NCBI GenBank assembly: GCA_947177975.1
Contig: CAMWWH010000001.1
Coordinates: forward strand, 1 to 52,339
Length of the DNA stretch: 52,339 nucleotides
Direction of reading: 5' to 3'
Source of the DNA: an uncultured Clostridia bacterium
Lineage (GTDB): Bacteria; Bacillota; Clostridia; Christensenellales; Borkfalkiaceae
How positions within the stretch are numbered: position 1 is the stretch's first letter; every line of letters starts with the position of its first letter. The notes beneath the pieces were generated by a model, which did not search any database, had not been told where the DNA came from, and worked only from the letters and a program-made list of their open reading frames with translations. Made by a program: the position numbers and the translations under genes. Shown here in pieces: positions 2,011 through 46,398 of the stretch.

Positions 2011-3251
2011 GTGAATTGACAACGATAGCTGCCGACAGATTTTGCGAATCTGTACGAGACGGCACTCACGATACGCCTAAACAGACGAATACGGGATACA
2101 AACTCGTTACAGGGAAACATATCAAGAATGGGCAAATTGACCCTACGGATGCTTATTTTATTTCTGAAAAAGATTATAAGAAAATAAATGAACGAAGCTT
2201 GGTGGAAAAATGGGATGTATTAATGTCCATGATTGGAACTGTTGGTGAAGTAGCAGTGGTTAAAGATACTCCCAATTATGCGATAAAAAATGTTGCGCTG
2301 TTCAAAATGGGAGGTTCTGAGTTAAAAGGTAAATGGCTTGCTTATTATCTTCAGACATCTAAAGCTCAAAGTCATATGTTTGGCAACATGAAAGGCTCCA
2401 GTCAGCAGTTCTTATCGCTAAAACAGCTTCGCGACCTGCCTGTGCCGATTGCTTCCGAAACTCAAATGAAACGGATCGTAGAAATCCTTTCCGCTTATGA
2501 TGACTTGATTGAAAACAATCAGAAGCAAATTAAGCTATTGGAAGAAGCGGCGCAACGGTTATATAAAGAATGGTTTATTGACCTTCGCTTCCCTGGTTAC
2601 GAGAATACCTTTTACAAAGATGGTATACCTGATGGGTGGAAAAAGAAAACTGTAGAAGAATGTTTATCACACTTTATAGGCGGAGGTTGGGGCAAAGACG
2701 CTCCCGTGGGGAAAAATATTATTATTGCAAAAGTAATCCGGGGTACAGATATAAATGATGTGAAATCAGGTGAATTTAAAAATTTACCTATTCGCTTTCA
2801 TTCAGAGCATAATTTAAAATGTCGCAAATTGAAAGAACATGATATAATTTTTGAGCTTTCCAATGGAAACATAAATAATATCGGGCGAACTCTTTTATTA
2901 GATAATAACCTGTTATCAACCATTGGAGAAAGTGTAATATGTGCAAGCTTTTGTAAACTTTTAAGACCCATCGATAGGTTACATTCCATCATTTTATATT
3001 GTGATATCAATTATATGCAAGCAAGCGCCAAACTATTGCCTTATAAAAAGCACGGTTCTAACGGTATAAACAATTTTGATTTTGACGGTTTTTTACAGCA
3101 TACAGTATTAGTCCCGGGAAAAGAGAGTTTAATAAATCCCATTTTCAAAATTTTGGAAAAAATTTGGAACGCTCAAAGTCAAATTGCGAAGTTATCGGAA
3201 GTTCGTGACCGCTTGCTTCCTAAACTCATGAACGCCGAATTGGAAGTCTAA
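2007..3251 (+). CDS. hsdS: Type I R-M specificity subunit HsdS
   Basis: ATGA overlap with the hsdM stop. Two variable target-recognition halves are separated by a conserved helical spacer (SAYDDLIENNQKQIKLLEEAAQRLYKEWF). The C-terminal helix is RDRLLPKLMNAELEV. The second TRD is very AT-rich. Confidence 0.9.
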   Translation: MSELTTIAADRFCESVRDGTHDTPKQTNTGYKLVTGKHIKNGQIDPTDAYFISEKDYKKINERSLVEKWDVLMSMIGTVGEVAVVKDTPNYAIKNVALFKMGGSELKGKWLAYYLQTSKAQSHMFGNMKGSSQQFLSLKQLRDLPVPIASETQMKRIVEILSAYDDLIENNQKQIKLLEEAAQRLYKEWFIDLRFPGYENTFYKDGIPDGWKKKTVEECLSHFIGGGWGKDAPVGKNIIIAKVIRGTDINDVKSGEFKNLPIRFHSEHNLKCRKLKEHDIIFELSNGNINNIGRTLLLDNNLLSTIGESVICASFCKLLRPIDRLHSIILYCDINYMQASAKLLPYKKHGSNGINNFDFDGFLQHTVLVPGKESLINPIFKILEKIWNAQSQIAKLSEVRDRLLPKLMNAELEV

Positions 3252-3344
3252 ACATAACATCTTTCTCACATAGGGAATTGATGGCGTTGGGCAGTATATC
3301 GATAAAGAGTATTTGAGTTATAATTTGCAGAAAGGAAATAGTGT

Positions 3345-6300
3345 ATGAGTTACGAATATTCTGAAAATATCCTTGTTCAGGAAAGCGCAGGTAATCTCTT
3401 GCAGAACGAGTTGGGTTGGCAAGTAGAGTTTGCGTACAACAGGGAAGTCTTGGGTGAAAGCGGCACTTTCGGCCGTAAAGATTACCGTGAGATTATTCTT
3501 TCGCGGTATTTTCAGACTGCTGTTAAAAAGCTCAATCCCTGGATAACTCAGGCGCAGGTCGACGAGGCTCAAAAGAAGTTGGAAAGCCATCTTTCAACGT
3601 CTTCCTTACTGCAAATCAACGAAGAAAAATATTTTCTGATTCGGGACGGAATTCCCGTTACCGTCAAAAAGTCGGACGGGAAAACCGAAACTCGCGTTGC
3701 CGCCATACTGGATTTTCAAAATCCGCAGAACAACCATTTCTTGGCAATTAAAGAATTAAAAATTCACGGCGAACTTTATCGTAGACGCACCGATATAGTC
3801 GGATTTGTTAACGGTATTCCGTTACTCTTTATTGAACTAAAAAAGAACAGTGTGGACGTTGAGAACGCCTACATCGATAACTATACGGATTATCTCGATA
3901 CAATCCCACATTTATTTTACTACAATGCATTTTTAATGTTGAGTAACGGCGTAGATGCAAAGGTCGGCACGTTGGGTAGTAAATATGAGTTTTTCCATGA
4001 GTGGAAGCGCTTGAAGGAGAGCGATTCGGGGAGCGTGGCGTTAGAAACTATGCTTCGCGGAATTTGTAAAAAAGAGAACTTCCTCGACCTTTTCGAGAAC
4101 TTTATACTTTATGACCATTCCGGAGGTAGAACAGCAAAAATACTTTCCCGTAACCATCAATACTTAGGAGTAAACGAGGCGGTCAATGCCTATGGCGCCC
4201 GGAAACTGAAAAACGGTAAATTGGGTGTATTCTGGCATACGCAAGGCTCGGGGAAAAGCTATTCTATGGCGTTTCTGTCTCAAAAAATCCGTAGAAAGTT
4301 TGAAGGCTCACCCACGATAGTTATACTTACTGACCGCGATGAACTGAACACGCAAATCAGCGATACGTTTGAAAATTGCGGTTTGCTTGGTAAAACGAAA
4401 GCCTCGCAGTTTATCGCAAGCAGCGGGGAAGATCTTATTCGAAAACTTACAGGTAATCCGAGTTTTATATTCACTCTAATTCAGAAATTCAATAAGCCCG
4501 ATGCCGAGCCTATCTATCCCGACCACGATATCATAATTATGTCGGATGAAGCTCACCGCAGTCAATACGGCATATTTGCGGACAATATGATGAAGTTGCT
4601 GCCTGAGGCGTCCCGTATCGGTTTTACGGGAACGCCGCTTCTTTCGAGCGATAATATTACCGAGAGAACGTTTGGCGGCTATCTCTCCGTCTATGACTTC
4701 AAGCGTGCCGTTGAAGACGGTGCTACCGTTCCGCTGTATTATGAAAACCGGGCGGATAAAATTGCGCAGCTGGAAAATCCCGAAATCACCGAGGAGATTC
4801 TTGCTGCCATCGAAGCGGCTGATATCGATCCTGATCAACAGGAAAAGCTGGAACGCGAATTTGCGAAGGAAATACATATTCTTACTGCCGAATCGCGTTT
4901 AAGGTCGATTGCGCAAGATTTTGTACGCCACTATTCCGACCTGTGGACAAGCGGTAAGGCAATGTTCGTTTGCCTGAATAAAGTTACTTGTGTGAGAATG
5001 TATAATTATGCCCAAGAATATTGGCAGGATGAGATAAACACGTTACAGACAAAGCTGAAGACTTCAACGCAACAGGAAGCGCAAGAGCTGAAGCGGAAAC
5101 TGAAATGGATGCAGGAAACCGAGATGGCGGTAGTCATCAGTTCGGAACAGAATGAGATTCAGACCTTCAAAAAATGGGGGCTTGATATTCTTCCTCACCG
5201 CGCAAAAATGGAAAAGCGTGAGTTGGATAAGGAGTTTAAAGACAGCGGCAGCAAGTTCCGTATTGTATTCGTCTGCGCTATGTGGCTTACGGGCTTCGAC
5301 GTGAAAAGCTTATCCTGTCTTTACCTTGATAAGCCACTGAAGGCGCATACGCTTATGCAAACCATAGCCCGAGCTAACCGTGTATCCGAGGGGAAAAGCA
5401 ACGGACTTATCGTTGATTATGTCGGTATTGTTAAAGCTCTCAGAAGGGCATTGGCAGATTATACTTCGAATAGCAGCAGAGCAAGCACCGATCCGACTAT
5501 TGATAAAGAAGTTTTGATTGCGCGGATTTATGAAATTATAGCAAACACCGATGCATTCCTTGCTCAACATGGTTTTAGCTTGAAATCACTCGTGGAAGCA
5601 ACCGATTTTGCAAAGCTTATGCTTTTGCAGACTGCGGCAAATGCTATGTGTGAGACATCGGAAATTAAGAAAACATTTCAAACCTACGCATCTGAGTTGT
5701 CGCGACTTATGAAATACGTCGACCGAGGAGATATTGACGCTGTTTCGCGCAGGTATAAAGACGCCATAATTGCTATTTACGATGAATTGCAAAAGAAGCG
5801 CAAACATTCCGATAATACGGATTTGTTGGTTCAAATTAACAATATTATCAATGAGCATATCGCAATAGAAAAGCAAGCCGGCGGTAGCGATCCGTCACGC
5901 CGATTTGATATCAGCAAAATCGATTTTGATACTCTCGGAAGACAGTTTTTCAACGCTAAAAGTAAAAATTTGATTTTGAAGGATTTAAGCGAGTTGATTC
6001 AAGAAAGATTAGCGCATATGCTGTTTTCCAATCCCGCCAGAATAGACTATTATACTCATTACCGTCAGATTATTGATGATTTTAATGCCGAACAGGATCG
6101 CTCAACTATTGAAAAGACGTTCATGGATCTGATGGATCTGGCAAACTCTATGGATACAGAACAGCAAAGGTATGCGCGTGAAGGATTTTCCGGCGATGAG
6201 GAATTATCACTCTACGATATTCTGTTCCGAGAGTCGCTCTCCGAGCACGACATAAACATAATAAAAGGAGTTGCGGTTAACTTATTGGCGAAAGTTAAGG

Positions 6301-18411: not shown

Positions 18412-18428
18412 TGTATATCGAAATTTCG

Positions 18429-18465
18429 GGGAACTCGCAATTTTTGCGGGTTCCTTTTATTTTCC
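18429..18465 (+). terminator. Rho-independent terminator
   Basis: Stem GGGAACTCGC / GCGGGTTCCT with loop AATTTTT, followed by TTTATTTT. Confidence 0.7.
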
Positions 18466-18553: not shown

Positions 18554-19240
18554 ATGATTTACGTAACAGGCGATACTCACGGATTACAGGACTACTTTAA
18601 ACTGCATATATTTGCGGGGCAACACCCCGAACTCACCAAGGACGACTATGTGATAATTGCGGGCGATTTCGGCGGGGTCTGGGACAGTAAGACATTGGCT
18701 GCCGATATAAAGCCTTATACCGAGCTTCCGTTCACTGTGCTTTTCGTGGACGGCAATCACGAAAATTTCGACCTCTTGGAAACCTTTCCCGTCGAGGAAT
18801 GGCACGGCGGTAAGGTGCATAAAATCAGACCCGACGTCATTCATCTTATGCGCGGTCAGATTTTCGAGATAGAGGGAAAGACCTTTTTCACCTTCGGCGG
18901 CGCGACGAGCATAGATAAGTTTATGCGCAGAGAGGGCATAAGCTGGTGGGCGCAGGAGCTACCCACTTTCGAGGAGCTCGACGAGGGTGTTGCCAACCTC
19001 AAACGCATTGGCGGCAAGGTGGACTATATTATCACGCATTCGTGCGGTGAGCGCGCTCTCACGTACCCGCAGATAAGAATTGCGGCGGGCGTCAAAACGG
19101 CTTGCCCCGAAACTCATATACTGTCTAATTTCGAGGACTTCGTCGATTTCAAGCACTGGTACTTCGGGCACTTCCATACCGACGCGCGGCTGGGCGACAA
19201 GTACACCGCACTCTATCACGAAATTGTGGGGATAGAATAA
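18554..19240 (+). CDS. Calcineurin-like metallophosphoesterase
   Basis: Motifs MIYVTGDTHG, IIAGDFGG, VDGNHEN, ITHS, GHFH. 228 aa. Confidence 0.85.
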   Translation: MIYVTGDTHGLQDYFKLHIFAGQHPELTKDDYVIIAGDFGGVWDSKTLAADIKPYTELPFTVLFVDGNHENFDLLETFPVEEWHGGKVHKIRPDVIHLMRGQIFEIEGKTFFTFGGATSIDKFMRREGISWWAQELPTFEELDEGVANLKRIGGKVDYIITHSCGERALTYPQIRIAAGVKTACPETHILSNFEDFVDFKHWYFGHFHTDARLGDKYTALYHEIVGIE

Positions 19241-19707
19241 TGAAAGTCGTTTTTTTGGATATAGACGGAGTGTTGAACTCGCGCATTTACGACAGAAAGA
19301 GGAATCTTCACGAAATGAGCAATATTGACGAATCGCGGATTCCGCTGGTTAAAAAGATAGTCGACCGCACGGGGGCGAAGATTGTTTTAAGCTCGACGTG
19401 GAGGGAACACTGGGATAAGGTTGCGGATAAGTGCGGCGAAGACGGCGTTTACATAAACCGTACTTTTGCGAAGTTCGGGCTTGAAATTTACGACAAGACG
19501 CCCGACCTCGGCAGTGACTTCGACCGCCCCGACGAGATAAAGGCGTGGCTCGGCTCTGCAAAGGAGTGCGTCGAGAGCTTTGTTATTATAGACGATTACC
19601 GCTATGCGTGGGCGGAGCTTTCGGATAAGTTTGTGAAGACCAATCCGCACTTCGGTCTGGGGCTTGAAGAAGAGCACGTTTTAAAAGCAATTGAAATCCT
19701 CGGATAA
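19240..19707 (+). CDS. Small HAD-superfamily phosphatase-like protein
   Basis: TAATG overlap with the upstream gene. HAD motif I is FLDIDGVLN, motif II is LSSTW, and the acidic motif is FVIIDDY. 155 aa. Confidence 0.75.
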   Translation: MKVVFLDIDGVLNSRIYDRKRNLHEMSNIDESRIPLVKKIVDRTGAKIVLSSTWREHWDKVADKCGEDGVYINRTFAKFGLEIYDKTPDLGSDFDRPDEIKAWLGSAKECVESFVIIDDYRYAWAELSDKFVKTNPHFGLGLEEEHVLKAIEILG

Positions 19708-19793: not shown

Positions 19794-20951
19794 ATGATTA
19801 ACTACAGTATTTTGCGCGGAAAAGATAAAATAGGTGAAAATTTAATCGAGATTTCTTACGGTGAAACACGTATTCTGGTTGAACTCGGCAAATCGTTGGA
19901 CGGAAGCGGCGAAGACCTCGAAAAGGAAATTTTGCAAAAACGCTACTCGGCAGTAGTCGTGTCGCACTATCACGAGGACCACGCGGGACTTATTAAATAC
20001 AAGCGCGACTGCCCCGTATATATCGGCAACGGCGCATACCGCATAGTCAAAACCGCGGCGGAGTATCGCGGCGAAATAACGCCCGAAAATATTTTAACCT
20101 ACCGTAACGGCAGGTCGTTCGAAGTCGGCGGTATAAAAATTACGCCATATCTTTGCGACCATTCCGCATACGACAGCTATATGCTCTTATTCGAGGCGGG
20201 CGGCAGAAGCATTTTATACACGGGCGACTTCCGTTTTCACGGCAGAAAGGATAAGGAAAAACTGCTTGCCGCTTTGCCCGAGAGGGTCGACGTCCTCATA
20301 CACGAGGGAACGAATATCGGTAAAAACGCTTGCACCTTAACCGAAAGCGAACTGGAAAACAAGGCGGTTGAAATTATGCAGGCAACCGATAAGCCCGTGT
20401 TCGTATTGCAGTCTGCCGCGAATATCGACAGGCTTGTCAGCGTGTACCGCGCAAGCAAGAGAAGCGGCAGGATTATGTATATGGATAACTATACCTCGCT
20501 CATTGCCGAGGCGGCGGGCGGGAAAATTCCCCGACCCGATAAATTCGACGACGTAATCGCTTTCACTCCGCGAGCCGTTCGCGGTAAGCGCGGGGAAGCC
20601 TTTTTGAAAATCAAGAACAAACGCGGGTTAAACGGCATTACCAAAGGCACGAAGCGTTATACAATGCTCGTGCGCGCGTCAATGGCGGATTATATCAAAA
20701 AACTCGATTCGGCGGCGCATATATGCGGGGCAACGCTCATTTACTCTATCTGGAAGGGCTATAAAAACGACAAATATACTGCGGAATTTCTAAGCGCAAT
20801 GGCGGAGCTTGGGATAAATATCGTCGACCTGCACACGAGCGGACACGCTGCGGCGGAGGATATCGAACTGTTAAAACGTACGGTGTGCGCCGAGGAAATT
20901 GTTTGCGTGCATACGGAATTTTGTTATAATGTAAAAAAGGACGGAGTATGA
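19794..20951 (+). CDS. Metallo-beta-lactamase fold hydrolase with beta-CASP-type motifs (predicted nuclease)
   Basis: HYHEDH (aa 58-63, nt 19965-19982), CDHS, TGDF, then HEGT / TSGH / VHTE in the positions of beta-CASP motifs A/B/C. 385 aa. The SD is weak. Confidence 0.8.
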   Translation: MINYSILRGKDKIGENLIEISYGETRILVELGKSLDGSGEDLEKEILQKRYSAVVVSHYHEDHAGLIKYKRDCPVYIGNGAYRIVKTAAEYRGEITPENILTYRNGRSFEVGGIKITPYLCDHSAYDSYMLLFEAGGRSILYTGDFRFHGRKDKEKLLAALPERVDVLIHEGTNIGKNACTLTESELENKAVEIMQATDKPVFVLQSAANIDRLVSVYRASKRSGRIMYMDNYTSLIAEAAGGKIPRPDKFDDVIAFTPRAVRGKRGEAFLKIKNKRGLNGITKGTKRYTMLVRASMADYIKKLDSAAHICGATLIYSIWKGYKNDKYTAEFLSAMAELGINIVDLHTSGHAAAEDIELLKRTVCAEEIVCVHTEFCYNVKKDGV

Positions 20952-21766
20952 GTTTTATAAGAGATTTCAATCGGACGCAGATAAATAAAATGACAAGCGG
21001 CGAAAACTCGGAGCTTTTTAACCGCCTTAAAGCCGACGTGCTGAGAGGCGAGGTCTTTCCCGCCGTCCGCAAAGACGAACTGCATTTTTATTATAAGGGC
21101 GGTTGTCTGCACAAGTTCAGCGGCGGCTCGTTTAAAAGGGACAAAAATTTTGAAAAATTCGGCGCGGATTTCAAGGAACTTCCCGCTTACGAAAGGGCGA
21201 AAAAGGAAAACGAAATCAAGTTTACGAATACCTGCGGCAAGGAAAAAGAGCGTAGGCTTTTGGACAAACTGTGTTCCCGCACCTTTACTACGCATAGCGG
21301 CGGGGTTGTGGTTCTCGATATAGAAGTCAATCTTAACGGCGAAGTCGGGCGCGGACAGAAGTGCGATTTGGTGCTGTTGAATACGCAGACGGACGAGCTT
21401 ATGTTCGTCGAAGGCAAAGTGTTTTCCGACCGCCGCGTAAACGTTTCGCCGCCGAACATTCCCGAGGTGATAGCTCAGGTAGACACGTATACCGCGGCAA
21501 TCGCAGAGCAACGGCATATTATACCGGAGCAGTACGCGAGGCATATAGGAATAATAAACCGGCTTTTCGGCACGGCGTACAATCCGCCCCGAAGATTGAT
21601 TGAACCCGCCAAGCTGCTTGTTTACGACGTCCCCGAAAGCCCGACGGCAAACGGCGGATACAGCATAAACACGATAAACGCGCGGCTGGGTGAAAGAAAC
21701 GTATTATGGGTTAAAGCGGGCGGCGAACCCGCGCTTGAAAGCATCTGGAATTTATTGACGGAGTAA
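20948..21766 (+). CDS. Hypothetical protein with PD-(D/E)xK nuclease core plus QxxxY motif (RecB/Cas4/Shedu-like)
   Basis: ATGA overlap with the MBL gene. KCD140LVLLNTQTDELMFVE155GK157 is followed by IAQ177VDTY181. The preceding helix is EKERRLLDKL and the preceding strand is VVVLDIEV. Confidence 0.6.
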   Translation: MSFIRDFNRTQINKMTSGENSELFNRLKADVLRGEVFPAVRKDELHFYYKGGCLHKFSGGSFKRDKNFEKFGADFKELPAYERAKKENEIKFTNTCGKEKERRLLDKLCSRTFTTHSGGVVVLDIEVNLNGEVGRGQKCDLVLLNTQTDELMFVEGKVFSDRRVNVSPPNIPEVIAQVDTYTAAIAEQRHIIPEQYARHIGIINRLFGTAYNPPRRLIEPAKLLVYDVPESPTANGGYSINTINARLGERNVLWVKAGGEPALESIWNLLTE

Positions 21767-21771
21767 AATAT

Positions 21772-23277
21772 TCAATACAGTAAGACCGTGCCCTCGGGGA
21801 GGGTGAAGTGCGGGGTGTTGACCTTGCGGAAATACATACTGTCCTCGCGGTAGGTGCGGTGGAAGATTATATACACGCGCGCATGCGGATATAACGCGGC
21901 GACGTTCTCTTTGAGAGCGTCGTAGGCCATAAGCTTGTTGGCAACCTCGAAATTCAAATCCACGCACACCGTTTCGGCGCCCTCCGAAAGCGTTTGCAAA
22001 AGCTTTGCACGGAATTCCGCGAGGATACTTTCGTGCGAGCGTATTACGCCCGCGCCGTGGCACGCTCCGCAGGTTTTAAGCATAAGCTCGGACGCCGCAA
22101 CTCCCGTGCGTTTTCTGGTAAACTCCACAAGTCCGAACTTCGACATGGGCAGAACGCGGCACTTGGACTTGTCGGCGCGCAGCGCTTTTTCCAGCTCGGT
22201 AACGATGGCGGCACGGTGGTTTTCCTCGGTCATATCGATAAAGTCCACGACGAACAGTCCGCCCATATCCCGAAGCTTGATCTGCCTTGCAATCTCTCTC
22301 GCCGCCAAGACGTTGGTGCAGTACACCGTGTGTTCGAGACTGTCCTCGCCCGTGAACTTGCCTGTGTTTACGTCGATTACGGTCAGCGCCTCGGTGCGGT
22401 CGATTATAAGATACGCGCCGTTCGAAAGCTCGACCTTCTGCATAAGCGCAGTCATGAACTGCTCGTAAATTCCCGCCGAATAGAATAAATCGGTATGAGC
22501 GTCGTGCAGCGTCAGCTTTACCGCATTGCCGTGCATATAGGTTGCGGCAAGCCCCTCGATGCTCTTGTATATCTGCTCGCAACCTACGAATATCTCGTCG
22601 CCTCTGTCCAGCATAATATCGCGTAAAACGCGTATATGCAGGGGGGAATCGCTGTATAAAAGCTCTCCGACGGGCGCTTCTTTAAAGCGCGTGAGAATGT
22701 TTTCGTATATTTTGCGGAAGTAATCTATCTCGTTTTTCTTGGTGCTAATAACGGCGTACGGCGCTGCGGTGCGCACTATCATGCCCTCGCCCTCGTTGAG
22801 CTGTTTTTTCGCGCTGAACGTCAGGTTTTTTCTCAGCTCCTTGTCGGATATCTTTGCCGAAACGCCGACGAAAGGAGTGTCGGGTAAATACACGATATAC
22901 TTGCCGACGAAGGATAAGCGGGTGGTGACCTTCGCGCCCTTTTTGCCCTGCGCCGCCTTGGTTACTTGAACTAAGATTTCGTCGCCCTCGTGCAGGTTGA
23001 GCGTTTGCGGAATATCTATTTCGCCGCCCTCGAATCTGGATTTGTCGGGGATTAAATCTGCGACCGAGATATAGCAGTGGCGCTCTAAACCGCAGTCGAC
23101 GAAAGCCGCCTGCATACCGTTTAAAACGTTGGTCACTTTGCCCTTGTAGATATTGCCGATAACCGCGCCGCTCATTACGGGCTCGGCGTTGTATTCGGTT
23201 ATTTTTCCGTCCTCTAAGAGGGCGAAAGTTTCTATTCCGTACTGACTGTCGAAATATAATTTCCTATGCACGTGCAT
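21772..23277 (-). CDS. rng: Ribonuclease G/E family endoribonuclease
   Basis: S1 domain (GNIYKGKVTNVLNGMQAAFVDCG) and the RNase E/G catalytic core (IIDRTEALTVIDVNTGKF, DFIDM). The ORF reaches GTG 23301, but ATG 23277 has AAGAGG upstream. Confidence 0.9.
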   Translation of the reverse strand: MHVHRKLYFDSQYGIETFALLEDGKITEYNAEPVMSGAVIGNIYKGKVTNVLNGMQAAFVDCGLERHCYISVADLIPDKSRFEGGEIDIPQTLNLHEGDEILVQVTKAAQGKKGAKVTTRLSFVGKYIVYLPDTPFVGVSAKISDKELRKNLTFSAKKQLNEGEGMIVRTAAPYAVISTKKNEIDYFRKIYENILTRFKEAPVGELLYSDSPLHIRVLRDIMLDRGDEIFVGCEQIYKSIEGLAATYMHGNAVKLTLHDAHTDLFYSAGIYEQFMTALMQKVELSNGAYLIIDRTEALTVIDVNTGKFTGEDSLEHTVYCTNVLAAREIARQIKLRDMGGLFVVDFIDMTEENHRAAIVTELEKALRADKSKCRVLPMSKFGLVEFTRKRTGVAASELMLKTCGACHGAGVIRSHESILAEFRAKLLQTLSEGAETVCVDLNFEVANKLMAYDALKENVAALYPHARVYIIFHRTYREDSMYFRKVNTPHFTLPEGTVLLY

Positions 23278-23303
23278 AAACCTCTTGAATTTTTTACTCA
23301 CTA

Positions 23304-44535: not shown

Positions 44536-46398
44536 ATGGAAATGGAAAACAAGCCCGCGCAAAAGGAAAAATTCAAGCGGCGCGGCAAAAATCAGAATAC
44601 GGCTACGGGTGAGAGCCGCGGCGACAAACGCGAAAAGCAAAAAGGTAACCCTAAAAAGAGTGCCGTAAAGCCTGTCGCCGCCGAGCGGAACAAACAGCCC
44701 AAACCCGTGCACGAGCGCAAGATTAAACCCGAAAAGAAGCAGAAAGCTCCAAAGAACGCGGTAAAAATCATATTTTTGGGCGGCGTCGGCGAAATCGGTA
44801 AGAATATGACCGCCTTGGAGTGCGGCGACGACATAATAATAATCGACGCAGGCATTATCTTCCCCACCGAGGAAACTCCGGGTATAGACCTCGTAGCGCC
44901 CGATATAACCTATTTAATAGAAAATAAGAAGAAGCTGCGCGCACTGTTTTTAACGCATGGTCACGAGGACCACATAGGCGGCGTACCCTATCTTTTAAAA
45001 GAAGTGGACGTGCCTGTCGTTGCGACCAAGCTCACCCTTGCGCTGGTTGACAACAAGCTGCGCGAACACCGTTTAAATAACGTTAAGGAAAAAGTTATCG
45101 CCCCTCACGACAGCTATCAGGCGGGCTGTTTTAAGGTGGATTTCATCAACGTAAACCACTCGATAGCGGGCGCGGTCGCGCTGTGCATACACACTCCACA
45201 GGGCGTAATTTTCCATAGCGGCGACTTTAAAATCGACTTAACTCCCGTCGCGGGCGAGCCGATAGATTTGAAATCTATCGCCGATATAGGCAGTAAGGGC
45301 GTGCTTTTGTATATGGGCGAGAGCACAAATATCGAGCGCCCCGGTTTTACTATGAGCGAGGCGGTCGTTGCCGAAACGCTGGACAGGCTGTTCGACGAAA
45401 ACAAGACCCGCCGCATAATAATTGCGACGTTCGCCTCCAACGTGCACAGACTGCAACAGATTATTGATTTGGCGGTAAAGTACAGGCGCAAGGTGGCGCT
45501 CAACGGCAGAAGTATGTTAAACGTCGTCGAGGCGGCGGAAAAGATAGGCGAAATGTCGGTTGCTGAAGGCGCAATCGTCGATATAACCAAGACGAAAAAT
45601 CTGCGCGACGACGAGGTTGTTATCGTCTGCACGGGCAGTCAGGGCGAGCCTATGAGCGCGTTAACGCGTATGTCTAACGGTGAAAACCCGCTTATTACGG
45701 TCGGTGAAAACGACACGATTATTATTTCCGCGTCGCCTATCCCCGGCAACGAGCGCGGCATTTACGGCGTTATCAACAAGCTGTACCATCTCGGCGCGGA
45801 CGTAGTTTACGAGAGCCTTGAAAAAATTCACGTATCTGGGCACGCTTGTCAGGAAGAGCACAAAATTCTGCACACTCTGTTAAAGCCGAAATTCTTCGTG
45901 CCCGTGCACGGCGAGTACCGCCATCTTAAAAAGCACTCGCAGCTTGCGCAGACCTTGGGTATGAACGAGCGTAATATCTTCCTTGCCGATATAGGCAATT
46001 GCTTGGAAGTGACGAGCAAGTATATCAAAAGGCTTGCGGACGTGCCGTCGGGCTCGCGCCTTATAGACGGCGAGGGCATAGAGGACGAGAAGGCTTCGGT
46101 TGTTATGCAGGACAGACGTCAGCTCGCCGCCGAGGGCTTGTTCATCGTGTCCGTGGCGGTGTCGGGCGGCGAGGTAATAGGCGAGCCCGCAATAAACTCC
46201 CGCGGGTTCGTGTTCGATTTTCACCACGACTATAACCGCGAAATGCGCGAGGTCATAAACCGCGCCATTCAAGGCTACGATTTGTCCGTCGGTACGGTGG
46301 ACGAACTTAAGCGCATTATTAAAAAATCGCTCAGAAATTACTTACAGAAGAAGACCAAGCAATCCCCTATGGTAGTGCCGGTCGTCGTGGAACTTTAA
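44536..46398 (+). CDS. rnj: Ribonuclease J (MBL/beta-CASP) with a roughly 75-aa Lys-rich N-terminal extension
   Basis: VKIIFLGGVGEIGKNMTALE, LTHGHEDHIGG, SGDFK, SGHACQEE, and a C-terminal domain. The extension spans aa 1-75. Confidence 0.93.
   Translation: MEMENKPAQKEKFKRRGKNQNTATGESRGDKREKQKGNPKKSAVKPVAAERNKQPKPVHERKIKPEKKQKAPKNAVKIIFLGGVGEIGKNMTALECGDDIIIIDAGIIFPTEETPGIDLVAPDITYLIENKKKLRALFLTHGHEDHIGGVPYLLKEVDVPVVATKLTLALVDNKLREHRLNNVKEKVIAPHDSYQAGCFKVDFINVNHSIAGAVALCIHTPQGVIFHSGDFKIDLTPVAGEPIDLKSIADIGSKGVLLYMGESTNIERPGFTMSEAVVAETLDRLFDENKTRRIIIATFASNVHRLQQIIDLAVKYRRKVALNGRSMLNVVEAAEKIGEMSVAEGAIVDITKTKNLRDDEVVIVCTGSQGEPMSALTRMSNGENPLITVGENDTIIISASPIPGNERGIYGVINKLYHLGADVVYESLEKIHVSGHACQEEHKILHTLLKPKFFVPVHGEYRHLKKHSQLAQTLGMNERNIFLADIGNCLEVTSKYIKRLADVPSGSRLIDGEGIEDEKASVVMQDRRQLAAEGLFIVSVAVSGGEVIGEPAINSRGFVFDFHHDYNREMREVINRAIQGYDLSVGTVDELKRIIKKSLRNYLQKKTKQSPMVVPVVVEL

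Follow-up and report, generated by a model that had tools for sequence, protein, structure and literature searches.

An RNase J-like beta-CASP protein and a predicted nuclease of a new PD-(D/E)xK family are encoded by a conserved gene pair in Clostridia and other bacteria

The stretch of DNA analysed here (the window) comprises 52,339 nucleotides of contig CAMWWH010000001.1 from an uncultured Clostridia bacterium of the Borkfalkiaceae, and carries on its forward strand two overlapping genes whose products are 385 and 272 residues long. The first product is a metallo-beta-lactamase (MBL) protein with a beta-CASP region, while the second, which a preliminary description had called an orphan, is predicted to be a nuclease of the PD-(D/E)xK superfamily. 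The two open reading frames (ORFs) meet in an ATGA overlap, which had been described exactly, as had the coordinates and strand of both ORFs: the TGA stop of the first (20949-20951) overlaps the ATG start of the second (20948-20950), and a Shine-Dalgarno-like AAGGA...GGAG lies ahead of the second start at 20937-20946. Relatives of the pair are likewise closely spaced or overlapping. The features of the locus are collected in Table 1.

Table 1. Genes, domains and candidate functional residues of the gene pair and other genes of the window
Feature	Coordinates	Strand	Basis or remark
Metallophos phosphoesterase gene	18554..19240	+	Pfam; phrog_1649, 6e-38; upstream of pair
HAD_SAK_2 'Swiss Army Knife RNA repair' phosphatase gene	19240..19707	+	PF18143 4e-26; phrog_1818; upstream of pair
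385-residue beta-CASP MBL nuclease gene	19794..20951	+	ATG start; ORF
MBL motif 2, H58-Y-H60-E-D62-H63, metal ligands	19965..19982	+	invariant in alignments A3 and A5
H347-T-S349-G-H351, putative RNase J-type 5'-monophosphate pocket (His/Ser) and beta-CASP motif B His	20832..20846	+	invariant in A3
Junction: Shine-Dalgarno-like AAGGACGGAG, then ATGA stop/start overlap	20937..20951	+	read from sequence
272-residue PD-(D/E)xK-like nuclease gene	20948..21766	+	ATG start; ORF
N-terminal domain, about residues 1-95: two helices, four-stranded beta-meander, short helix	20948..21232	+	AlphaFold2 model
Predicted nuclease core, about residues 96-272	21233..21766	+	AlphaFold2 model; A2 conservation
Candidate catalytic E101	21248-21250	+	invariant in A2
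Candidate catalytic D124	21317-21319	+	invariant in A2
Candidate catalytic E126	21323-21325	+	invariant in A2
Candidate catalytic D140	21365-21367	+	invariant in A2
Candidate catalytic E155	21410-21412	+	invariant in A2
Candidate catalytic K157	21416-21418	+	invariant in A2
Candidate catalytic Q177	21476-21478	+	conserved in at least 90% of A2
Candidate catalytic Y181	21488-21490	+	invariant in A2
RNase E/G gene	21772-23301	-	GTG start; convergent on pair, ends at 21772
Canonical RNase J gene (rnj)	44536..46398	+	3zq4, E 7.5e-143

Judged by its sequence and its predicted structure, the 385-residue protein is a beta-CASP enzyme with complete catalytic motifs that is closest to RNase J and is not an RNase J orthologue. 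In Pfam it matches Lactamase_B_2 (6e-10) and, below threshold, RMMBL (0.0045). Its best NCBIfam matches are RNase J models (3e-19 and 2.5e-18), which it matches far under their cut-offs (TIGR00649 and NF047419; 65.8 bits against 400 and 69 against 820). The best match among PDB sequences is B. subtilis RNase J1 (3zq4, 1.3e-10), and the alignment takes in the MBL half as well as the C-terminal HTSGH and VHTE motifs. When both kinds of partner MBL are aligned with the window's own RNase J (alignment A3), H58, H60, D62 and H63 of motif 2, H123 and D145 of motifs 3 and 4, E171 of beta-CASP motif A, H347, S349, G350 and H351 of the H347-T-S-G-H351-A segment, in which H351 is motif B, and H373 of motif C are all invariant. 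The motif 2-4 residues H58, H60, D62, H63, H123 and D145 are also invariant in alignment A5. The full HxHxDH set and the acidic, His and His residues at positions A, B and C, as read in the preliminary description, are among them. Motif 1 in the subgroup of the 385-residue protein has E30 in place of Asp. In RNase J of D. radiodurans, His377 and Ser379 make up the 5'-monophosphate pocket and His381 is the motif B residue (PMC4477667). H347, S349 and H351 were matched to these residues by eye from the H-x-S-G-H spacing, without an alignment, and by this reading the 385-residue protein keeps the pocket residues of RNase J.

The AlphaFold2 model of the 385-residue protein has a predicted local distance difference test (pLDDT) score of 92 and a predicted template modelling (pTM) score of 0.88. 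Its best Foldseek neighbour in the PDB is the uncharacterised E. faecalis protein EF2904 (2az4; E 2e-22, template modelling (TM) score 0.77); 42 RNase J chains are also found (E 1e-21 to 1e-18, TM 0.68-0.78), and archaeal CPSF, IntS11 and CPSF73 rank after RNase J. Superposition of the model on RNase J, CPSF and IntS11 extends across about 415-425 alignment columns, and SNM1/Artemis proteins are absent from its top 50 neighbours. The earlier proposal of a compact RNase J relative is strongly confirmed by these sequence matches and fold comparisons. With RNase J and EF2904 the protein shares the MBL and beta-CASP architecture, the metal-binding and A/B/C motifs and the H-x-S-G-H pocket. Unlike RNase J, to which it is about 20% identical, it has 385 rather than about 555 residues, lacks the C-terminal dimerisation domain and is paired with a PD-(D/E)xK protein in a genome that has a separate canonical rnj. 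That gene does lie at 44536, where the genuine rnj had been placed; its product is 22% identical to the 385-residue protein over 355 residues and runs about 160 residues further, while the 385-residue protein ends about 12 residues past motif C. Ahead of the part that can be aligned with solved structures of RNase J, the canonical enzyme also has an N-terminal extension of about 67 residues, rich in Lys, Glu and Pro. The majority of the close homologues of the window MBL, P0276 and P0320 among them, have about 500-510 residues, some as many as 590-656, and bear an N-terminal extension of about 120 residues with a conserved 'VGxFWxIPD', several Cys and no Pfam match, which the window protein does not have.

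The 272-residue protein has no match in Pfam, NCBIfam, PHROGs, PADLOC or the PDB sequences, the PADLOC search returning only a chance-level E of 0.0094. A profile built from 74 diverse relatives, down to about 25% identity (alignment A2), gives no match among PDB sequences even at E 10. About 220 close relatives are found, all unnamed or 'hypothetical' and chiefly from metagenome-assembled genomes (MAGs) of Clostridia, and a profile search of 1.84 billion representatives yields 553 clusters of relatives, 364 of them at E 1e-10 or better. Across the 74 relatives R5, R41, F47, Y48 and G51 are invariant in the N-terminal domain and E101, D124, E126, D140, E155, K157 and Y181 in the remainder, while Q177 is found in at least 90% of them. 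Among the invariant residues are the acidic ones and the Lys on which the preliminary description had based its nuclease assignment, and the numbers that it had given to D140, E155, K157, Q177 and Y181 are exact.

In the AlphaFold2 model of the 272-residue protein (pLDDT 91.2, pTM 0.89), the N-terminal domain is followed by a predicted core that begins with helix 99-109, which bears E101. Then come the strands 120-128 (D124 and E126), 138-145 (D140) and 150-158 (E155 and K157), the helices 173-187 (Q177 and Y181) and 192-207, strand 216-228 and further helix-strand-helix elements. PD-(D/E)xK enzymes have this same alpha-beta-beta-beta-alpha-beta order, and the candidate catalytic residues are at the expected positions: D140 on strand 2 and E155 and K157 on strand 3 form the motif, and E101 is on the first helix. 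The C-terminal part of about 80 residues, which had been taken for a separate region without features, belongs to the nuclease fold. The restriction-endonuclease-like fold that had been suspected is thus predicted, and most of the first 12 Foldseek neighbours in the PDB are PD-(D/E)xK nucleases, though none is significant. The best of them is the Shedu nuclease domain 8ti9 (chain 8ti9_C; E 0.017, probability 0.75), after which come MunI, SduA, SfsA, MUS81, BstEII and the DdmDE complex. PD-(D/E)xK nucleases again dominate the matches in the viral structure library BFVD, where the best E is 1.4e-3. A Pfam scan of the 74 relatives gives sub-threshold matches to HSDR_N_2 in 22, PDDEXK_9 in six, SduA_C in four and YhcG_C in two, and to NERD, HSDR_N, PDDEXK_11, RE_XamI and SfsA in one member each; these roughly ten families are of PD-(D/E)xK type. 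The family would join the PD-(D/E)xK superfamily as a new member that is not in the family, defence or structure libraries searched, and the 272-residue protein, from its conserved residues and its modelled fold, is taken to be an active nuclease.

The preliminary description had likened this protein to RecB, Cas4 and Shedu nucleases. The likeness holds for the superfamily and for the QxxxY pattern; the protein is a member neither of Shedu DUF4263 nor of Cas4/RecB. Shedu SduA (DUF4263, PF14082) also has a PD-(D/E)xK core after an N-terminal accessory domain, and its structures 8ps4 and 8ps5, besides 8ti9_C, are among the neighbours of the model. However, the TM scores are only 0.27-0.36, the 272-residue protein has no Pfam-significant match to it, and Shedu consists of a single gene whereas the gene of this protein comes with that of an MBL nuclease. 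Membership in Shedu was rejected: SduA_C is matched below threshold in four of the 74 relatives (best E 0.0012) and not by the window protein, and PADLOC gives no Shedu match. With RecB, Cas4, AddB and lambda exonuclease the protein shares the Glu of the first helix, the hhhD and hhExK strands and QxxxY on the next helix, and AddAB is among its distant fold matches. Unlike these enzymes, the family has no profile match to them among PDB sequences, no Fe-S cysteine cluster and no helicase partner, and it has the extra invariant residues D124 and E126 on strand 1. Cas4 membership was rejected because no Cys is invariant in A2, which leaves no four-Cys Fe-S cluster. Scans of the two closest genes to either side at 36 loci (110 proteins) found no conserved helicase or cas gene next to the 272-residue gene. 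The most frequent sub-threshold Pfam match, HSDR_N_2 (PF13588; Type I R-subunit N-terminal or Mrr-like), covers the three-strand catalytic core of the relatives (best 4e-4 in the scan; 2e-4 for P0203), but every such match is under the gathering score, and the pair has no helicase or ATPase, methyltransferase or specificity subunit.

The N-terminal domain of the 272-residue protein, with its own invariant residues, could bind a substrate or a partner protein. It might alternatively be a ligand sensor, if the MBL were an Apyc1-like cyclic-nucleotide phosphodiesterase regulating a ligand-activated PD-(D/E)xK effector. Besides these invariant residues, faint Anti-Pycsar_Apyc1 matches on partner MBLs and an NCBIfam cyclic-nucleotide phosphodiesterase match (E 0.017) would fit such an arrangement. 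It is nevertheless improbable, since the Apyc1 matches rank under stronger generic MBL matches, and the neighbourhood holds no conserved cyclase or other source of a signal. The fold of the MBL, moreover, is RNase J-like and includes a complete beta-CASP insertion with motifs A-C, features that Apyc1 is not known to have. Some relatives of the 272-residue protein are longer: P0184 and P0203/P0270 (about 500-512 residues) have an unannotated N-terminal extension of about 220 residues. These extended relatives (loci L013 and L055) have no adjoining MBL gene, and one N-terminally extended relative lies near an AAA_15/AAA_21/DUF3696 ATPase gene.

The two genes are linked across genomes far beyond chance. 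A scan of species-representative genomes gives 31 loci, chiefly from Clostridia and Christensenellaceae MAGs, with others from Mailhella, Endomicrobium and a rumen MAG, and in 28 of them tblastn finds an MBL homologue directly adjacent, in one of two gene orders. The three exceptions are a contig of 1.9 kb, a solo copy and a copy fused to a DEDD exonuclease, which has a different MBL gene convergent downstream. In the order found in the window, MBL before partner, the MBL is about 75% identical and the pair is often just upstream of rpmG-secE-nusG; in the opposite order the MBL is only about 30% identical, while the partner is 50-57% identical. Distant family members (P0161, P0174 and P0250) are paired with an MBL as well, and in one protein of 818 residues (P0131) MBL and partner are naturally fused. 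Independent occurrence of the two genes, which would have spoken against the pair, is contradicted by the adjacency and by this fusion. Several partners are fused to a C-terminal RNase_T/DEDD exonuclease. In fusions such as P0003, P0005, P0022 and P0030, where this domain has about 160 residues, its third motif, H-x4-D, looks degenerate in some, and a few of the fused exonucleases may be inactive. When all flanking ORFs are clustered, the window-type pair proves to have no conserved third gene, the only clusters being antisense shadow ORFs. The module is common in gut Clostridia (Christensenellaceae-type MAGs), and with Mailhella, Endomicrobium and Treponemataceae it is spread over several phyla.

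The linkage is also seen from the MBL side. Eighty metagenome loci were fetched with the MBL as the starting point, and their neighbours were classed by hidden Markov models and profile-profile comparison. A substantial MBL ORF is present in 70 loci, 15 of which have too little flank to judge. A PD-(D/E)xK-like partner is found in 49 of the 55 evaluable loci, and six are true negatives. Eleven of the 49 partners belong to a distant branch of the window's 272-residue family (hhalign 96.5%, E 7e-10). The other 38 form a second family of about 235 residues, with invariant D131, E148 and K150 in 'GKIDLL...ILELK'; hhalign matches its catalytic motifs to those of the window's family with an E of 3e-4. 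Since pairing holds in 49 of 55 loci with two partner families, the RNase J-like MBL is the constant element, usually accompanied by a PD-(D/E)xK nuclease. In 18 metagenome loci a third gene, placed between those of the PD-(D/E)xK partner and the MBL or next to them, encodes a protein of about 230 residues that has two transmembrane helices in its N-terminal part and matches nothing in Pfam (for example L062, 1132-1821; L090, 2291-3004; L113, 1734-2453). In two of the six negatives the MBL is fused to a DnaE-type Pol III alpha palm within a single ORF, of 809 residues in one (L057, 2839-5268) and 737 residues in the other (L103, 2983-5196). These two MBL relatives are 60% and 39% identical, and the palm is recognised in Pfam (6e-33 and 5e-15) and in the PDB (5lew, 2.5e-35), L057 having part of the finger domain as well. 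In these fusions the MBL sits where the PHP domain would be, and neither has a PD-(D/E)xK partner beside it. The preliminary description had seen only part of what is a larger and more general module. At L125 and L128-L135, on large BNJS, BNJT and BNJU contigs of up to about 0.56 Mb, the MBL matches are broken into pieces of 65-100 residues, and at L128, L133 and L135 the matches to the second partner family are broken up likewise, which points to pseudogenes, introns or another genetic code.

The pair thus has two complete and conserved active sites and is itself conserved, with its order shuffled and its members occasionally fused. That the adjacency has no functional meaning, or that the 272-residue protein is an inactive nuclease-like relic, is very improbable: although no single structural match of the partner is significant, the genes adjoin in two orientations in 28 of 31 loci, fusions exist, the reciprocal pairing is 49 of 55, and the candidate catalytic residues, save Q177 (at least 90%), are invariant at an overall identity of about 25%.

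Two nucleases encoded side by side could well form a nucleic-acid-degrading 'cut-and-chew' module, most likely serving to destroy foreign nucleic acid such as phage or mobile-element DNA, and this is the reading that we tentatively prefer. PD-(D/E)xK enzymes leave 5'-phosphate ends. The 272-residue endonuclease would cut internally and leave such ends, on which the 385-residue beta-CASP enzyme would load through its RNase J-type pocket to degrade the strand in the 5'-to-3' direction. In some relatives the DEDD 3'-5' exonuclease fused to the endonuclease would cover the opposite polarity. The two proteins would act as a physical complex, and the module would be a stand-alone defence or conflict cassette. 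The order of action, the formation of a complex, the substrate and the role in defence are all inferred. DNA is modestly favoured over RNA as the probable substrate, because the partner resembles restriction-type enzymes in its sub-threshold matches, because MBL relatives are fused to Pol III alpha and because RNase J can cut DNA; the enzyme of D. radiodurans acts on DNA too, with RNA preferred (PMC4477667).

A role in conflict is suggested by the character of the family, which is rare, spread over several phyla and shuffled in its architecture, as is typical of conflict systems. Several copies of the module lie beside genes of mobile elements: Rep_1 and an integrase; a large serine recombinase with TnpW and NikA/MobC; Mob_Pre; and DUF3801, GIY-YIG and a methyltransferase. 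Among DNases of the MBL superfamily there are established antiviral effectors (bioRxiv 10.1101/2025.11.14.688446; PMC13069673). The protease-activated MBL DNases of the Avs and Hachiman (HamMAB) systems resemble the present module in that a nuclease of the MBL superfamily, remotely related to RNase J and ComEC, is partnered (10.1101/2025.11.14.688446; PMC13069673). Their partner, however, is a protease of trypsin-, caspase- or subtilisin-like type, which acts by cleaving a zymogen, whereas the partner of the window MBL is a second nuclease, and the neighbour scans find no protease or STAND sensor near the pair. In the literature no description of a named system of MBL and PD-(D/E)xK proteins was found, only protease-paired MBL effectors.

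Several results weigh against a defence module. The 110 neighbouring proteins are heterogeneous and mostly housekeeping in Pfam, the top family occurring three times, and PADLOC finds among them only sporadic AbiEii, PDC-M13A/B and one reverse transcriptase, so that an association with defence islands is unsupported at the 36 loci. The position of the pair is stable among related species, for example beside rpmG-secE-nusG or between HSP90 and glycogen genes, which fits ordinary vertical inheritance. The phage, plasmid and viral contigs of INPHARED, PLSDB and IMG/VR hold no match to the module, and a phage or plasmid origin was rejected for that reason. PADLOC-DB v2.0 gives noise-level matches only for the window proteins, the 74 relatives and nine partner MBLs, and no methyltransferase, ATPase or obvious sensor was found that would explain discrimination between self and non-self. 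The Foldseek comparison of the 272-residue model with the PDB gives nothing significant (best E 0.017, TM 0.2-0.35), and the closest solved relatives of the MBL with known function, namely RNase J, aCPSF, IntS11 and CPSF73, are all RNases.

The housekeeping neighbours, the stable position and the absence from phage and plasmid collections would be expected if the pair served instead in DNA repair or recombination, in a housekeeping or accessory capacity, and were passed on vertically in some lineages of Clostridia. The PD-(D/E)xK protein would then cut damaged or branched DNA and the beta-CASP enzyme would resect it in the 5'-to-3' direction, in the manner of SNM1/Artemis-type or RecB-type end processing. 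The fusion of MBL relatives to a DnaE-type polymerase palm and the action of D. radiodurans RNase J on DNA (PMC4477667) agree with this. A repair pair is nonetheless rather unlikely, as the family is rare and patchy (553 clusters in 1.84 billion, across phyla), gene order, partner family and fusions are shuffled, some variants include the two-transmembrane protein, several copies are on mobilisable elements, and no repair genes co-occur. Defence or conflict is the single most likely role of the module, and repair or housekeeping its main rival; neither is established.

Since the nearest characterised relatives of the MBL are all RNases, RNA is a serious alternative substrate. The RNase J-like enzyme might act with a ribonuclease of PD-(D/E)xK fold as an alternative decay complex or as an RNA-targeting conflict system, and the two genes just upstream bear on this possibility. 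The Metallophos and HAD_SAK_2 genes share a one-base overlap and lie directly 5' of the MBL gene. A strong terminator-like hairpin (18428-18456) precedes them, none was found between 19707 and 19794, and they may be co-transcribed with the pair in this genome, where their phosphoesterase and phosphatase products may trim RNA ends. An RNA-directed module would also account for the retained 5'-phosphate pocket and the weak matches to RMMBL ('RNA specificity'), and the HAD_SAK_2 domain, whose gene is not separated from that of the MBL by a terminator, comes from RNA-repair proteins. It is nevertheless doubtful, and slightly more so than a repair pair. The sub-threshold matches of the partner go to restriction-type families, and PD-(D/E)xK enzymes are overwhelmingly DNases. 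DNA is also indicated by the fusion of MBL relatives to Pol III alpha, the genome already has a canonical RNase J and RNase G, and the conservation of the pair does not extend to the upstream genes. By tblastn no homologue of the window's Metallophos or HAD_SAK_2 gene lies beside the pair at other loci, and both were rejected as parts of the system and are considered neighbours only. Just upstream of L053, a distant copy of the module, there is likewise a Metallophos gene (2920-3621). Its product is unrelated to that of the window by BLASTP, and the likeness may be a coincidence or a recurrent functional association.

On the other side of the pair, only 5 bp separate the end of the 272-residue gene from that of the convergent RNase E/G gene (21766-21772), and no terminator-like hairpin lies between the two. 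No tRNA gene was found in the window (1-52339), nor any Rfam family at gathering score, including the region upstream of rplK-rplA (about 28.3-29.5 kb).

The defence reading can be extended, more tentatively, to the module as a whole. The pair and its relatives with the second partner family or the two-transmembrane protein might be undescribed anti-phage or anti-plasmid systems, in which the constant RNase J-like beta-CASP nuclease would degrade foreign DNA processively from 5'-phosphate entry sites made by the endonuclease; such a generalisation is possible, though it commands less confidence than the cut-and-chew proposal itself. In the module RNase J-like beta-CASP enzymes would gain a job beyond RNA turnover, as the exonuclease arm of a two-nuclease machine, and if phages or plasmids are restricted, the module would be a compact two-gene system. 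With its natural fusions and interchangeable partners, and with two small soluble enzymes that have clear active sites, the module is a well-defined target for biochemistry.

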